NCBI GenBank assembly: GCA_037132075.1
Contig: JBAXPV010000007.1
Coordinates: 1 to 64,000, forward strand
Source: Bacteroidota bacterium
GTDB lineage: Bacteria > Bacteroidota > Bacteroidia > Bacteroidales > CAIXZF01
DNA: 64,000 nt
Reading direction: 5' to 3'
Shown here: positions 5,208 through 43,813 of the stretch, one piece after another
Position numbering within the stretch: position 1 is the stretch's first letter
Layout of the letters: every line of letters begins with the position of its first letter
Program-made: the position numbers and the translations under genes
Notes under the pieces: model-generated
What the model saw: the letters and a program-made list of their open reading frames with translations, nothing else
Databases searched by the model: none
Told to the model about the DNA's origin: nothing

Positions 5208-7005
5208 TGAGGCATTTCATCAAAAGGGAAACAAGATTTTTGTCGATTTTGGTGATCGGAAATTAAGCTATGGCGCATTTAGAACTGAGCTTAGAAAATA
5301 TACCACATATTTCAGGAACGAGGGTCTTACAGCAGGACAAAGAGTTGTAATCTCCTCAAGAGATGAATATTTTATATGTTGTTTTTATCTTTCTTTGATT
5401 GCCAACGGCATAACAGTCATCCTGCTTGACCCAGACAGCGGGACTGAGCGGGCCAAGGCAATCGTGAATCATACCAAGGCATCCTTTCTTTTTTTGGATG
5501 CAGAGATTCAGGAGTTATGGGAAATTCCTGTTGATCAAGACATCCGAGTGATTCCTATTCAGCAGGCCACAGCTGCTAATGTATTTCGGAAGTTATTGCA
5601 GAAGGGAAAATCTCAAAATATATTATTCCCGCAATGTGTCGAAAGGCTTGCCGAATCTGACTTTATCCCTCCGGAGGATCCCGAATCAGACGCGTATATT
5701 TTGTATACGTCAGGAACAACATCTGCACCAAAAGGAGTCCGTATTTCATACAGGGCCTTGTTGTCACACCTGGACAGCCTTTCCCGGGTTTACCAGATGG
5801 ATCATGACTCAAAGATCTTCAACAACCTGATACTCTCGCATGCTGATGGAATTGTCCAGGGTCCTTTGCTGGCATTGTACAATGCAGGGACATTATACCG
5901 GCCTTTCCCATTTTCCATTCAAAATATTGAAGATGCATTCGATATAATATATCGTGAGAAGATAAATTATTGGATAATGGTTCCAACGATGATGGCTTTG
6001 ATATACCAGTTCAAAAAGGACGATAAGGATTGCCTGGATCAAGCAGGTTTTCGAAATGTTATTTCCTGTGGTGCAAAATTGGATGCTGTTTTATGGAAAC
6101 AGTTTGGGGAGAAATTTAACACCAGGATCATTAACGTTTATGGATTAACTGAAACGGTAACCGGTGGAATATATGCAGGACATGATGATAAATCAAATAT
6201 AATTGGAAGTATTGGGAATGCTGTTGATTGTGACATCAGAATATCAGGTATTCACGATGAAGAAATGGGCATTAACGAGACCGGAGAACTATGGATACGT
6301 GGCAGTTTGCTGATGAGCGGATACCTGGATGCTCCTGAAGCCAACCAGGAGGTTTTTGAGGGAGCATGGCTAAAAACCGGGGATATTGGTTACCTGGGTG
6401 AGGATGGGTGTTACAGATTGACAGGGCGGAAGAAGCTAATCATCATCTCGGGTGGCGTTAATATTTTTCCGGAAGAGGTAAGCGAGATTATCCGTACACA
6501 TCCTGCAGTCCAGGATGCAGTGACTTTTGGCATTGAGGACGGGATTTGGGGAGAAATTGTTGCCGCAGCATTGGTTATCAGGGAAAACATAAAGCTTAGT
6601 AATGAAGAAATTGTAGCGTTTTGCCGGGAACATATGGAGGAACAGAAGGTACCTTCCAGGGTCTATTTCCTGGAGGCCCTGCCTTATGGAAGATCCGGCA
6701 AAGTACAAATGCAATTGCTAAGAGAAAAAGTACTTCAAACGGCTGACAATGGGGTTTCCGAGGCTGAGCCAGTTCAGACATTTCTGCAAATTGTTTCCAA
6801 AATTCTTCAATTGCCGCTACACGATCTCAATATGGATCTGCGGTTTGACAACAGTCGTGCCTGGGATTCTATTTCGCACCTTATGTTGGTTGTAGCCATG
6901 GAAAAACACTATCAAATCGAATTTACAGCCCTTGAAGTGATGAACGTTAAAAGCCTTGCTGATTTGTTTTCAATTATAAAAGGAAAGCAGTTTGAAGCAA
7001 ACTGA
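5170..7005 (+). CDS. ANL adenylate-forming enzyme fused to a C-terminal acyl/peptidyl carrier protein (PP-binding) domain
   Basis: Motifs ILYTSGTTSAPKGV, YGLTETV and a LPYGRSGKV C-terminal lysine region. An extra ~80 aa C-terminal domain follows, with a phosphopantetheine-attachment-like motif RAWDSISHL(M)L...A.E..Y.IEF. The gene overlaps the upstream gene by 38 nt. Confidence 0.8.
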   Translation: MDLLNHIGKDIFNEAFHQKGNKIFVDFGDRKLSYGAFRTELRKYTTYFRNEGLTAGQRVVISSRDEYFICCFYLSLIANGITVILLDPDSGTERAKAIVNHTKASFLFLDAEIQELWEIPVDQDIRVIPIQQATAANVFRKLLQKGKSQNILFPQCVERLAESDFIPPEDPESDAYILYTSGTTSAPKGVRISYRALLSHLDSLSRVYQMDHDSKIFNNLILSHADGIVQGPLLALYNAGTLYRPFPFSIQNIEDAFDIIYREKINYWIMVPTMMALIYQFKKDDKDCLDQAGFRNVISCGAKLDAVLWKQFGEKFNTRIINVYGLTETVTGGIYAGHDDKSNIIGSIGNAVDCDIRISGIHDEEMGINETGELWIRGSLLMSGYLDAPEANQEVFEGAWLKTGDIGYLGEDGCYRLTGRKKLIIISGGVNIFPEEVSEIIRTHPAVQDAVTFGIEDGIWGEIVAAALVIRENIKLSNEEIVAFCREHMEEQKVPSRVYFLEALPYGRSGKVQMQLLREKVLQTADNGVSEAEPVQTFLQIVSKILQLPLHDLNMDLRFDNSRAWDSISHLMLVVAMEKHYQIEFTALEVMNVKSLADLFSIIKGKQFEAN

Positions 7006-10230: not shown

Positions 10231-10260
10231 CCCTTAGGTGGGCCTTATGGTTTCGCCCAG

Positions 10261-11607
10261 TCACCCAGTCGCCTGGTCCCCCATTCCCCCAGTCGCCTTG
10301 TCGTCCTTTTTAGAGATCAATTTAAGCAAGTAACCCGACAACAAGCCACCCGTACTCTCATCCCCCTGCACGAGGAAGTCAGGCGTGACCTTGATCTGGC
10401 CCATGGCGATTTGTTTGGCGATTTCGATTGCGGTGACGCCTTGCTGGCCGATGGATTTGTTCTGGAGTTCGTAGGCTTTGGCGGTAGACTCGCCGATCGC
10501 GAGGATCTTTGATCCTTCAGCATTCCCGATGGCGATGATTCCTTTGGCTTCACCTTCTGCACGGATCCTTGTGCTCTCAGCTTCGCCTTCTGCGAAGCGT
10601 ATGGTTTTGAGCTTTGTCTGCTCGGCTATCTTAACCCCGATTTCTGCTTCCATGAGGATCTTCTGGAGTTCTGCTTCGGAACGTGTCTTTTCTGTGGCAA
10701 TCCTTGTCTGTTCTGCTTTCTGTTGCTCCTGGTACATGGCCATTTGCTGCTGGGCGATGATTTTTTTCGTCTGGGTATCCATGAGTTCCTGGGGCAGGAC
10801 GATCTGGCAGATGAGGACAGAGACACATTCAACATGGTATTTCTCGAGTTCGAGGCGGGTCCGTTCTTCGGCTTTACGTTGTTCTTCCTGCCGATCCTGG
10901 AGGAAGTTCATGGCAGACGTAGAAGAGGCCTGGTTGCGGAAGCTGGAGTCGATCATGGGGTGGATGACGTGGTTGATGAGGTTGTCGATGGAGCCGATTT
11001 TGGCCACCATATACGGTGCCTGGTCGGGTCTGACACGGATGATGACTTTGACGGAGACGCTGATCTCGAAGCCGTCGCGTGAAACGACTTTGAGCTGATC
11101 GAATTTCGTTTCCTGCGCATCGTCCCAGTCGATGGTGATGTTGGTGGTATCGACGATATAGATGATGAAAGCCCTTCGGTTGATATAATAGATCCCCGGG
11201 CCTGCGACTTCTTTCTGGATGCCACGGTAGCCTTTGGGCACGACATAGCGTTCGATGCCGTATTTCAGACGTTGCTCGGCTTCTGAAAGTGTGGTTGTAT
11301 CGGAAGCTTGCGGTGGTGCTCCGACCATGTCTTTGTCGAGGTTTGCGATGATATGCTGGGGTTCTTCTCCAACGTTTGAGATGACGACAGCAACCTGGCC
11401 TCTTTCCACGACGGCGACTTCATCGAGCTCAGTCTTGAACATCAAAGGGTTGACGTAATAGGTTCCGGGTTTCAGAACATCGAACTGGGGACCGCGCTGG
11501 CCACCGTTTTCGAGGAATTTCGAGACATTTTGAAAGTCGTTGTGGTTGGGTACTGACTTGGCAACATATTCTGTTTCCGGCAGGGGTTCTCCGTCGAGTG
11601 CTGTCAC
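10261..11607 (-). CDS. Flotillin-like SPFH/band-7 protein, C-terminal fragment (YqiK family). It is the downstream part of a frameshift-split gene.
   Basis: SPFH domain plus a long EA-rich coiled coil (AEGEAESTRIRAEGEAKG...). The N-terminus carries the third copy of the repeat motif KIGLVTALDGEPL...FLENGGQRGPQ..LKPGTYYVNP, found twice in the upstream ORF. Confidence 0.7.
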   Translation of the reverse strand: MTALDGEPLPETEYVAKSVPNHNDFQNVSKFLENGGQRGPQFDVLKPGTYYVNPLMFKTELDEVAVVERGQVAVVISNVGEEPQHIIANLDKDMVGAPPQASDTTTLSEAEQRLKYGIERYVVPKGYRGIQKEVAGPGIYYINRRAFIIYIVDTTNITIDWDDAQETKFDQLKVVSRDGFEISVSVKVIIRVRPDQAPYMVAKIGSIDNLINHVIHPMIDSSFRNQASSTSAMNFLQDRQEEQRKAEERTRLELEKYHVECVSVLICQIVLPQELMDTQTKKIIAQQQMAMYQEQQKAEQTRIATEKTRSEAELQKILMEAEIGVKIAEQTKLKTIRFAEGEAESTRIRAEGEAKGIIAIGNAEGSKILAIGESTAKAYELQNKSIGQQGVTAIEIAKQIAMGQIKVTPDFLVQGDESTGGLLSGYLLKLISKKDDKATGGMGDQATG

Positions 11608-41038: not shown

Positions 41039-41309
41039 GCACCTCATCCCCCAACCCCTTCTACTGAAGGAGAAGGGGAGTAGGACACTGCTAATATTTA
41101 CCATTATTACTACTATTATGAACAAATATTAAATATAATAGAGTGATGCATCAATGCTAAAATTTCCGGCAATCTGCCCCCCTTCTCCTTCAGGAGAAGG
41201 GGTTGGGGGATGAGGTGCCAAGAATAAATCTCCTTCAGGAGAAGGGGTTGGGGGATGAGGTGCCAAGAATAAATCTCCTTCAGGAGAAGGGGTTGGGGGA
41301 TGAGGTGCC
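41039..41309. repeat. MITE-like palindromic element copy A. It has 15-bp terminal inverted repeats (GGCACCTCATCCCCC) and two extra 45-bp tandem duplications of its right end.
   Basis: TIRs gcacctcatccccc...gggggatgaggtgcc bound the core taggacactgctaatatttaccattattactactattatgaacaaata. A 45-bp unit, aagaataaatctccttcaggagaaggggttgggggatgaggtgcc, is repeated directly twice more. A second copy lies at 43617-43759. Confidence 0.8.
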
Positions 41310-41331
41310 ACAATTAATTCTCAATAAGTAG

Positions 41332-41366
41332 AAGGGGTTGTGGAATGAAGACCACAACCCCTTTTA
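41332..41366 (+). terminator. Stem-loop with T-tract (aaggggttgtgg-loop-ccacaacccctt-tt), putative terminator
   Basis: 12-bp perfect stem with 8-nt loop, followed by TTTT on the plus strand. Confidence 0.4.
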
Positions 41367-41404
41367 GTACAATTTAAGATGTTTCGGTTGAATTATCTGT
41401 TTTG

Positions 41405-43438
41405 TCAGTGGGTGAAAATATTGCTCAAATTCCTGTATCCTGTCATTGGCTTATACCAGTCATAGTAGTCCATTCCTGAAGATTGACCCCAGGTAAAGAA
41501 CTTTAAATGAGCCTGGGTAACGACTACTTTTTCTTTCGGATAGTCGAAAGGACCGGCAATGTCGATGGCATAGGGGAGATTGTTTTTTGTCACATAAAAC
41601 CTACCCTGAGCTGGTTTACTGTCATCCTGGCCCGTACCTAAAAAGGAGGTGTTGGCGAGGTCGGTTGGTTTGTTGTCGATTAAGTGTACTTCCTTAGTAC
41701 GGTCTTCATTGATAATCATAAAAGGATTATACGGCGGCGTACCGAGGGTGGAAAGATTTACGGGTGACGTAAGATTAATCGTGATTTTCAAGGTGTCTGG
41801 CGTTACATAGGGAGCGCCTACTGTTGTATTTACCCCAACCGCTCCACCTCCCGGGTATGGAAGTTCATTGAAGGCATTGTCGTAGCAGATAATTACAGCT
41901 TTAGATTGACTGGCTTCTGTACCATTTGCATTTCTTACAATATAAGATTCTTTAATAGAAGTTCCGGTGACACTCGAGATAAGACTTGGGCTGATTGGCA
42001 ATTGAAATCCAAAGCCGTTTTGATAACTGGCTCCGATGGCTTTCAGGATAATCTTAGCCTTAATTTGAACGGCCTGATTTTGGCCATTGGTGATTTCATT
42101 GAAATTGTAATCCACAACCATATCATTAAAGTCATAGTCACCTTTAGAAGGCCAGAGGTCTTCAAATGCAATTGTTCCGACAGCATTTTCTGAAGGATAA
42201 AAGTTATCAAAAGCTTTGGTGGCATCAGTAGGATAGTCATCAAAATTGTCGGATACTCCGTCATGATCTGAATCTGTAGCTGTATAATTTGGTAGCGGAA
42301 TATTCGTGGTCTGAATATTCTGAATAGGATCAGCCTTTACATAAAAGATAGCGTCATTAAAGTCATTGTCTGTAGTGCCGTCACGACGCTGGTCTTCGAA
42401 GCTTAACAAGAATTTTCCACGTCCAAGATCGTTCAGAAGGATTGAGTGTTTCTTTAAACTTGGATTTGTCTCAGGATTGAGGTTGGTATTTGAGTAGAGC
42501 ATTCCCAGGCCATTTGTAATGGTAGTTCCGTTATAGCCATTGGCGATGAGTACCCATCCAATTGTGCTTCCAGGACCAAAGGTTCCGATGTGTACTTTGT
42601 TTCCAGAAGCCAATCCGCCACCACTCCCGCTAAACGAAACATTTGGGAAAATAATGTGAATAGTGTCAATAGCAGCAGCAGTAGCAGGCGGGTTGTTTGT
42701 ATTGTACCTGTAATATCCCATTACATTGCGGTAACCTGCACCTTCGTGCACAAAGGATACCCATACATTACAAGCATCGGTAATGACAAGGTTTGGCTCA
42801 TTAGATGCTATAAAATATTGGGGATGACTTGTTGTAAGTGCCTGGTATTCAGGAAGTGTAGCATTGATATCTGCCAGTGTCGCGGCATCAATCACATCAT
42901 TCGGGAAGCTCAGGTAATTCGGGACACCGTTGCTGTTGTATGTCCCCAGTGGCTGGATAATAGAATTGGTTGTACTGAATAAGGACTCAGAACTTTTCAG
43001 TATCTTTACTTGTTTCCCTCCTAAGGTTAGGTTTACACTACCCGATACAATTTTTACTTTTTGCATATTGGGAAATCCCAGGGTTCTGGTTCCTATAGTT
43101 AATGAGTCTACGCCAGCCGGAATCCGGTAATTGGCTTTGTATTGACCGCTGGCGTCTGTAATGCCGCCTAAAATCCGGCTACCTCCATTGGCTGGTAGGT
43201 CTGAATAAATATCAATACGAACGTTGGGCACTGGTGCATCCATGTTATCCAGCGCAGTTACATTAATGTTAATATCCTGGGTTGTTCTGAATTTGAAATT
43301 TGGACTAACATTCATGTTTTCGATGTTTGTTTCATCAACAGACGGAACGTTATCAAATTTCTTGCAGGAATTTAATGAAAGCGCCAGAGAAATAAGAATG
43401 ATCAATAATAAGTATGATTTTCTGCTCTTGATTTTCAT
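41405..43438 (-). CDS. LruC-domain lipoprotein
   Basis: Lipoprotein signal peptide (LSLNSCKK). Block AFEDLWPSKGDYDFNDMVVDYNF characteristic of the LruC domain. Confidence 0.65.
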   Translation of the reverse strand: MKIKSRKSYLLLIILISLALSLNSCKKFDNVPSVDETNIENMNVSPNFKFRTTQDININVTALDNMDAPVPNVRIDIYSDLPANGGSRILGGITDASGQYKANYRIPAGVDSLTIGTRTLGFPNMQKVKIVSGSVNLTLGGKQVKILKSSESLFSTTNSIIQPLGTYNSNGVPNYLSFPNDVIDAATLADINATLPEYQALTTSHPQYFIASNEPNLVITDACNVWVSFVHEGAGYRNVMGYYRYNTNNPPATAAAIDTIHIIFPNVSFSGSGGGLASGNKVHIGTFGPGSTIGWVLIANGYNGTTITNGLGMLYSNTNLNPETNPSLKKHSILLNDLGRGKFLLSFEDQRRDGTTDNDFNDAIFYVKADPIQNIQTTNIPLPNYTATDSDHDGVSDNFDDYPTDATKAFDNFYPSENAVGTIAFEDLWPSKGDYDFNDMVVDYNFNEITNGQNQAVQIKAKIILKAIGASYQNGFGFQLPISPSLISSVTGTSIKESYIVRNANGTEASQSKAVIICYDNAFNELPYPGGGAVGVNTTVGAPYVTPDTLKITINLTSPVNLSTLGTPPYNPFMIINEDRTKEVHLIDNKPTDLANTSFLGTGQDDSKPAQGRFYVTKNNLPYAIDIAGPFDYPKEKVVVTQAHLKFFTWGQSSGMDYYDWYKPMTGYRNLSNIFTH

Positions 43439-43616
43439 TTTAATTGGTTTTGTATTTGTGAATAGTAGCTTTATCTGTATTTTTATAGAAAGGAGATTTG
43501 CGAAATCTATGCCATGGTCGTAATGTATTGAATAGCAGGAATATGCACTTGAAATGCTTTTACTAAAATGTATTAAAAAGATACAAATGTATTAAAATGA
43601 GACACTTTGGTTTTTA

Positions 43617-43759
43617 GCCTCATCCCCCAACCCATTTCTCCTGAAGAGAGAAGGGGAGTAGGACACAGCTAATATTTATCATTATTACTACTATTATGAA
43701 CAAATAATTAATATAATAGAGTCATGCATTTATATCAAAGTTTGTGGGGGATGAGGTGC
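43617..43759. repeat. MITE-like palindromic element copy B (same TIRs and core as copy A)
   Basis: gcctcatcccccaaccc...taggacacagctaatatttatcattattactactattatgaacaaata...gggggatgaggtgcc. It is about 90% identical to copy A over the shared core. Both ends are followed by acaatta. Confidence 0.8.
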
Positions 43760-43813
43760 CACAATTATACCATCTTTAAAAGAACTGGTTAGAGAATGAG
43801 GCTTATGACAATT

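Follow-up and report, generated by a model that had tools for sequence, protein, structure and literature searches.

Palindromic repeats around an LruC-domain gene in a Bacteroidota genome belong to a hairpin-tail family found next to DUF559 genes in several phyla

Introduction

In the repetitive extragenic palindromic (REP) systems of Escherichia coli and Pseudomonas, where REP doublets form hairpins (REPINs), the gene of an HUH/Y1 transposase, the REP-associated tyrosine transposase (RAYT), is flanked by lineage-specific palindromic repeats. Here we analyse two copies, A and B, of a palindromic element that bracket an LruC-domain gene in a Bacteroidota bacterium (contig JBAXPV010000007.1, positions 1 to 64,000; this whole 64-kb stretch is called the window), together with the family of hairpin-tail repeats to which their ends belong. 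The family resembles REPs and REPINs in its short palindromic units, inverted doublets of about 100 nt, mostly extragenic position, lack of target-site duplications and formation of tandem or mosaic arrays, and in that the repeats also flank one small gene of the nuclease type. It differs in that this gene encodes a DUF559 protein of the PD-(D/E)XK type and not an HUH/Y1 enzyme, and in that the module sequence is common across phyla, whereas REPs are lineage-specific.

Miniature inverted-repeat transposable elements (MITEs) derived from insertion sequences, such as Correia and Nezha, are likewise small, non-coding, foldable and intergenic and carry terminal inverted repeats, but here we find neither a target-site duplication nor a related transposase-encoding element. 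Rickettsia palindromic elements are palindromes of about 100-150 bp that lie in frame inside protein genes, as does one unit of the present family on a Pseudanabaena plasmid (locus L033, below); they are, however, not known outside Rickettsia and have no known nuclease gene, and the likeness is one of form. On the enzyme side, the Vsr-like nuclease I-Bth0305I acts as a homing endonuclease, and nucleases of its type drive the spread of their own gene (PMC3239194). The DUF559 proteins share with these EDxHD/Vsr-like enzymes the nuclease fold and the conserved E, D, H and D, and a DUF559-containing intein gene has been assigned to the same family (PMC9403480). Enzymes of the I-Bth0305I type reside in group I introns or inteins and have extra DNA-binding domains, unlike the free-standing genes described here, which are flanked by hairpin-tail repeats that also exist in many gene-less copies. 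In a separate context, 'DUF559 domain-containing protein' is an annotation listed as enriched in predicted targets of inversion that have inverted repeats on both sides (PMC9881135).

We consider it probable that A and B are gene-less palindromic repeats of a cross-phylum family whose spread would be linked to DUF559 genes. The locus itself is ordinary, and the wider result is the link between the repeats and DUF559 genes across phyla. This link appears to be undescribed, as a literature search whose coverage excluded most subscription journals found no description of the repeat or of its association with DUF559.

A hairpin-tail module family across bacteria

The module, a provisional definition made in this analysis, consists of a C-rich hairpin (CCCCTTCTCC-loop-GGAGAAGGGG) and a tail of about 16 nt (TTGGGGGATGAGGTGC; also written GGGGTTGGGGGATGAGGTGC), which occupies 13-16 nt on the 3' side of the hairpin (GGGGTTGGGGGATGAGG). 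In GTDB representative genomes, 25 stretches contain an exact 19-mer that spans the tail and a hairpin arm, and the hairpin follows in 19 of them. These 19 loci include five in Adhaeribacter aerolatus and others in Bacteroidales and Lentimicrobiaceae metagenome-assembled genomes (MAGs), Pseudanabaena, a Polyangiaceae MAG and an alphaproteobacterial MAG. The same sequence, as a 19-23-mer, is thereby found in Bacteroidota, Cyanobacteriota, Myxococcota and Proteobacteria; the exact 23-mer lies on complete plasmids of Pseudanabaena and Synechocystis and on at least 119 metagenome contigs, and a 22-mer from the element's end gave no match in viral contigs. The hairpin arms co-vary (CTTCTCC/GGAGAAG versus CTCTCC/GGAGAG) and the loops vary freely.

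The commonest form of the family is a gene-less doublet, in which two inverted modules enclose a short spacer (median length of 97 nt from the left end to the right tail). In the lineage of A and B, an AT-rich core of about 95 nt serves as the spacer; Adhaeribacter has a filling of its own type, of about 130-250 nt and free of ORFs, which gives elements of about 190 and 330 nt. A 23-mer from the A/B core had no match in JGI metagenomes, and in a plasmid BLAST with the A/B element the modules alone matched and the core did not; judged by such comparisons, the core is a lineage-specific filling. The earlier note on this DNA had suggested a genome-wide repeat family and held that an element found nowhere else would be unlikely to be mobile. 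For the end modules, a widespread repeat family is supported by the 19 GTDB loci and the metagenome contigs. The core, compared with plasmids and JGI metagenomes, was found in A, in B and in assemblies of the same species and nowhere else.

What remains of the same note's description of the element as MITE-like is the palindromic copies and their widespread ends, not the usual sense of the term. A classical MITE would derive from an insertion sequence by deletion and depend on a DDE transposase, supplied in trans, that recognizes its terminal inverted repeats. The 35-50-nt terminal inverted repeats of copy A, its small, non-coding and intergenic nature and the presence of several copies in other genomes, as at the five loci of A. 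aerolatus, would suit this explanation, but we regard it as distinctly improbable. When the ends of 75 family doublets were placed where the inverted repeat stops, 70 had no flanking direct repeat of 2 nt or longer, a result equalled by a mismatched-flank control, and the check for target-site duplications proposed in the note revealed none at A or B. In addition, no transposase-like ORF family recurs beside the modules in 144 loci (about 1 Mb), and the insertion within a gene on a Synechocystis plasmid (below) is clean, with the tails as its boundaries.

Structure of copies A and B

In the window, copy A occupies positions 41039-41309 and copy B positions 43617-43760, in the same orientation, that is, as direct repeats. 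Their AT-rich cores are 89% identical across 96 nt, by repeat search and alignment. The window has five matches to a profile hidden Markov model (HMM) of the module family, trained on modules from unrelated loci, with E-values of 7e-12 to 3e-6, and A and B contain them all. The motif GGGGGATGAGGTGC likewise has five occurrences in the 64 kb, always in 41039-41309 or 43746-43759, against a shuffled mean of 0.36; neither the motif scan nor the HMM found further copies of the element or its modules in the window. We have high confidence that A and B are non-autonomous members of the hairpin-tail family.

Copy A begins with a left module (41039-41080, plus strand; HMM match at 41041-41080, E = 2.6e-8), in which the tail complement GCACCTCATCCCCCAA is followed by the hairpin CCCCTTCTAC-TGAA-GGAGAAGGGG, and which forms the left arm of the inverted repeat. 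The AT-rich core (41081-41174, plus strand) has no ORF of its own. The right module, or unit 1 (41175-41219, plus strand; HMM match at 41175-41216, E = 6.8e-12), combines a full hairpin, CCCCCCTTCTCC-TTCA-GGAGAAGGGG, with the tail TTGGGGGATGAGGTGCC and forms the right arm, and it is followed by tandem units 2 and 3 (41220-41309, plus strand; 45-bp period), in both of which the hairpin is shortened and the tail full (HMM matches at 41230-41261 and 41275-41306). In copy B the left module (43617-43658, plus strand; HMM match at 43618-43658, E = 2.7e-6) is somewhat degenerate (GCCTCATCCCCCAACCCATTTCTCCTGAAGAGAGAAGGGG), the core (43659-43742, plus strand) is the same in two further assemblies of the organism, and the right end (43743-43760, plus strand), recognized by its motif match, has kept the tail (GTGGGGGATGAGGTGCC) and lost the sub-hairpin, which appears as a gap in the alignment with A.

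Beyond these limits lie degenerate units. A fourth unit of A (41310-41366, no strand assigned) matches the tandem unit at 87% and contains an inverted repeat, in which a tail-like arm, AAGGGGTTGTGG, pairs with a downstream arm that resembles the tail complement, CCACAACCCCTT. The resulting terminator-like hairpin (41332-41363, with the terminator-like site given as 41363-41332) lies just past the LruC stop codon. The fourth unit could be read as a tails-inward arrangement (described below for DUF559 genes) minus the gene, although this is only an inference. A homologous extra unit of B (43761-43801, plus strand) agrees with it at 25 of 41 positions in register, a score equalled by just one unrelated site in the window. 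About 12 nt separate the end of this unit from the sensor kinase stop codon, which follows it. On the left side, the homology between A and B ends at the left module, and gapped local alignment of the regions flanking the two copies gave nothing significant outside the elements.

Most of what the earlier note read from the sequence was borne out: the motif scan, repeat search and alignment all recover two copies with inverted ends, sub-hairpins and an AT-rich core. Its 15-bp terminal inverted repeats need revision, however, because the ends are indeed inverted but the arms of copy A match over 35 nt at 97%, stretching to 50 nt at 92%, and the left end of A (TGCACCTCATCCCCC) starts with TGCACC and not GGCACC. 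The left terminus of B is TAGCCTCATCCCCC, and its terminal inverted repeat is a perfect 12 nt (CCTCATCCCCCA / TGGGGGATGAGG). The secondary-structure prediction that the note had called for returned a strong fold (-135.8 kcal/mol; z = -9.5 versus shuffles), and in Rfam no family reached its gathering threshold, the sub-threshold matches being plant miRNA precursor hairpins only. The ORFs that it had dismissed as products of the tandem repeat do translate the repeat: a 65-aa ORF at 41116-41313 on the minus strand repeats HLIPQPLLLKE and another at 41203-41331 on the plus strand repeats EKGLGDEV, with a further spurious entry of the ORF list at 41129-41311 on the minus strand. The repeats explain both these ORFs and the breaks of short-read assemblies at the locus.

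Association of the modules with DUF559 genes

The DUF559 domain (PF04480) is very common. When all ORFs from the 144 loci were clustered without bias, it was the sole recurrent small family that always adjoins modules. Among the matches listed for the metagenome loci, which were chosen on the module alone, a DUF559 ORF lies within about 100 nt of a module at 6 of 119. Starting from the protein, 18 DUF559 genes were chosen by protein similarity alone (13 from plasmid or chromosome records and 5 from assemblies), and 16 are flanked by a module (independent HMM, E < 0.01) or by an inverted repeat (z > 5); at the remaining genes, one from Neisseria and one from Methylobacterium, modules can be seen by eye only. 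The hosts of this set comprise Cyanobacteriota, Deinococcota (Deinococcus), alpha-, beta- and gammaproteobacteria and a Syntrophobacteraceae MAG, and the set includes ycjD of E. coli.

The module-flanked genes are free-standing and encode proteins of about 110-150 aa, eight of which were confirmed as PF04480 by Pfam. The predicted catalytic residues of the nuclease (D, ExDG, H, D, R and R) are invariant in 15 module-flanked proteins, and the only solved structure of a DUF559 homologue is 3HRL.

Other candidates for a partner or a substrate were tried and rejected. Ten small ORFs beside modules matched neither PF05635, the four-helix-bundle family of 23S rRNA intervening sequences (IVS), nor PF13366 (GxxExxY), and a T:C mismatch in the left hairpin, considered as a conserved substrate of Vsr type, is present in just 8 of 143 modules. 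A protein search with a chimeric peptide of six module reading frames gave three weak and uninformative matches.

The association also bears on the possibility that the repeats are of REP/REPIN type and are moved by a RAYT acting on single-stranded hairpins. Their inverted palindromic doublets of about 97 nt, mostly extragenic and free of target duplications, and their tandem and mosaic arrays, which recall bacterial interspersed mosaic elements (BIMEs), fit such an origin. We nevertheless think it unlikely: the gene flanked by modules is DUF559 and not a RAYT; the GTAG tetranucleotide conserved 5' of the REP hairpin is absent from the module sequences examined; and in the window and 1.03 Mb of DNA with modules, tblastn with E. 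coli RayT gave no match at E <= 1, although a RAYT is single-copy per genome and may lie elsewhere.

Gene-bearing cassettes and E. coli ycjD

Several sites speak for movement of the gene-bearing unit. On a plasmid of Synechocystis sp. B12 (CP101712.1; locus L029, 4387-4902), a module-DUF559-module cassette forms a 516-nt insertion in a DUF1156 gene, between the positions of residues 196 and 203 of a homologue. The reading frame is the same on both sides, the tails form the boundaries and no duplication accompanies the insertion. The interrupted gene, which resembles methylases of the defence type, is split by the cassette into two annotated ORFs, and a gene-less doublet (L029, 2958-3038) lies further along it.

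On plasmid pPg_02 of Pseudanabaena galeata (locus L033, 412-3327), a doublet-DUF559-doublet arrangement runs stop-free inside a methyltransferase ORF annotated as 1,621 aa; this cassette is positioned just upstream of the methyltransferase motif DPACGSGHFL. Elsewhere, a DUF559 cassette interrupts the pglX gene of a bacteriophage exclusion (BREX) system (L030), and in a Comamonas sp. contig (L174, 601-1035) a DUF559 gene and its two flanking modules take up all of the space from a fadB-like gene to a thiolase gene except for 8 nt and 5 nt.

In E. coli K-12 MG1655, a hairpin-tail doublet follows ycjD (locus L161, 2541-2907, fabI-ycjD), with no repeat annotation in the record. The module downstream of ycjD is a GC-rich imperfect palindrome, found at 10 sites in the median E. 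coli genome. Forty complete genomes were sampled across the 5,426 of the collection; the 27 with ycjD carry 8-18 sites and the 13 without it 1-8, a difference confounded by phylogeny. In kind, the module resembles the GC-rich palindromic repeat of E. coli named 'Box C', with which it might be identical. Other phylogroups of E. coli have the eefRABCD operon at the position of ycjD (PMC12817139).

A possible mode of spread

Having inverted ends, the whole element can fold onto itself as single-stranded DNA or RNA. In the mechanism that we propose, a DUF559 endonuclease (Vsr-like, PD-(D/E)XK) would act on the hairpin and tail and start copying to new sites, and A and B would be non-autonomous relatives of the gene-bearing units, as REPINs are to RAYT genes.

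Several observations weigh against this explanation. The 64-kb window contains no DUF559 gene, so that a partner nuclease in this organism is hypothetical, and among the DUF559-adjacent examples found, none is demonstrably from Bacteroidota. The gene stands in two topologies relative to the modules, either inside them with the tails pointing outward or between them with the tails pointing inward, so that one simple transposon model does not explain both. DUF559 cassettes could target the repeats, or ride with them, rather than move them, and the action of DUF559 on module sequences is putative. Finally, A and B are the only known sites of the AT-rich core. Because of the missing gene in the window, the lack of a clear Bacteroidota example, the two topologies and the ambiguity of the association, we give DUF559-started copying of family members to new sites, as suggested by that association, somewhat less than an even chance. 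More tentative still is the broader idea that modules and DUF559 genes together form an undescribed cross-phylum selfish system with the layout of REPINs and RAYTs but driven by a PD-(D/E)XK enzyme, in which gene-bearing cassettes would insert cleanly, also within coding genes, and would produce many gene-less doublets like A and B.

If the nuclease does act on these hairpins, DUF559 would gain a function and a class of repeats that causes false ORFs would be explained. A second type of enzyme would also join the small set that spreads REP-like repeats, and E. coli ycjD, with about 10 copies of the module in each genome, would offer a convenient experimental system.

The LruC gene and its neighbourhood

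The gene bracketed by the repeats, and not part of them, lies at 41405-43438 on the minus strand and encodes 677 aa with the Pfam domains DUF4114 and DUF4842 (LruC being the NCBI name). As the earlier note had it, this is the sole gene between A and B. Its nearest homologue outside the species is 70% identical. On one side of the locus are genes for a beta-helix protein sorted by the type IX secretion system (T9SS) and for glycosyltransferases, and on the other a hybrid sensor kinase gene and then a polysaccharide-utilization locus (PUL).

The position of the copies around exactly one gene had raised the idea of a composite unit, in which A and B would jointly move LruC. A relative (5.47 Mb; locus L164), whose LruC protein is 65% identical, keeps the same order of LruC, T9SS and family 2 glycosyltransferase (GT2) genes, and there the 101-nt gap between the convergent LruC and T9SS genes holds a plain hairpin and no module. 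LruC therefore predates the repeats, which rules out the composite unit; moreover, A and B are direct and not inverted, no duplication flanks the A-LruC-B block and no transposase is present. No alignable empty site was obtained from which the insertion boundaries of A or B could be fixed.

In L164, the LruC orthologue has two tRNA-like sequences upstream (5330-5540), at the place that copy B and the kinase/PUL block take in the window, so that the break in synteny coincides with copy B. A PF05635 (23S rRNA IVS protein) gene is located at the start of the same locus.

The repeats may also have consequences for LruC, as they mark a place where the gene could be deleted or its transcription altered. 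As direct copies, A and B are possible substrates for its deletion, and their hairpins are possible transcript-end structures at the convergent T9SS and LruC ends and between the kinase gene and LruC. Such a role underlies the alternative that the element is not mobile here, having arisen by local duplication and been kept as a transcript-end or insulating structure, or as a regulatory RNA, around LruC. Both copies lie at gene ends and the fold is strong (z = -9.5), the fourth unit of A forms its terminator-like hairpin right after the LruC stop, A and B are homologous beyond their nominal end, in the degenerate extra unit as well, and only two copies of the core are known. Against this, no Rfam family matched, and the modules have no U-tract, a weak one following just the hairpin at 41332-41363, on either strand. 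The A/B homology also stops at the left module. The occurrence of modules in both orientations, at unrelated loci of several phyla and even within coding genes fits a selfish repeat better, and we judge a purely local, non-mobile origin improbable.

Between copy B and the LruC start, the window has two adjacent 19-nt direct repeats (43566-43603; AAATGTATTAAAAAGATAC / AAATGTATTAAAATGAGAC). On the minus strand they contain TACATTTG, which is similar to TAnnTTTG, the -7 promoter motif of Bacteroidota; on that reading, copy B would lie just upstream of the LruC promoter. Pairs of hexamers resembling sigma-70 promoters also occur on the minus strand at homologous positions of the two cores (41132-41160 in A and 43710-43738 in B), the pair in B facing LruC, although the total found in the scan is no higher than expected by chance and Bacteroidota promoters are of a different type.

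The tandem array and its assembly support

Tandem Repeats Finder (TRF) reports an array at 41184-41348 with a period of 45 and 3.7 copies. Its 36-nt end motif, TCTCC...GGTGCC, has three perfect occurrences, and the perfect periodic run extends over 41184-41310. By sequence and by TRF, then, the perfect 45-bp triplication described in the earlier note is present in the contig, but its count of three cannot be carried over with the same assurance. All independent short-read assemblies break within the array, so that the number of tandem units rests on this one assembly.

Given that the source is a MAG and that each of these assemblies breaks at the same feature, the triplication, or the element itself, could have been made by misassembly. 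We consider this very unlikely, because four independent assemblies of the same organism reproduce the left module, the core, the first unit and the unit-to-unit junction of A, and two reproduce copy B exactly. The element is thus real and its units are at least duplicated, and just the exact unit count depends on a single assembly.

Tandem arrays touch a module at 11 of the 144 loci, and the 46-nt tandem unit of one of them (L125) is near-identical to that of A, which marks the amplification in A as a family feature rather than one peculiar to this locus. Most likely, the extra units of A arose by replication slippage or by unequal recombination between units.

The array in L125 (930-1160, metagenome contig Ga0364881_12004) comprises modules in the same orientation and then units made of the tail only (GGGGGATGAGGTG plus 13 nt, with a period of 28), and L004 has a comparable 26-nt array of tails; in such arrays a tail and about 10-13 nt more are copied in tandem. 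A public contig in L002 (5268-5284) ends in the Nextera adapter CTGTCTCTTATACACA where the tandem array starts, an instance of adapter contamination at an assembly break. Elsewhere in the window, TRF lists a 24-nt tandem repeat at 10256-10302 (CCCAGTCACCCAGTCGCCTGGTCC), with two copies and an 8-nt sub-period.

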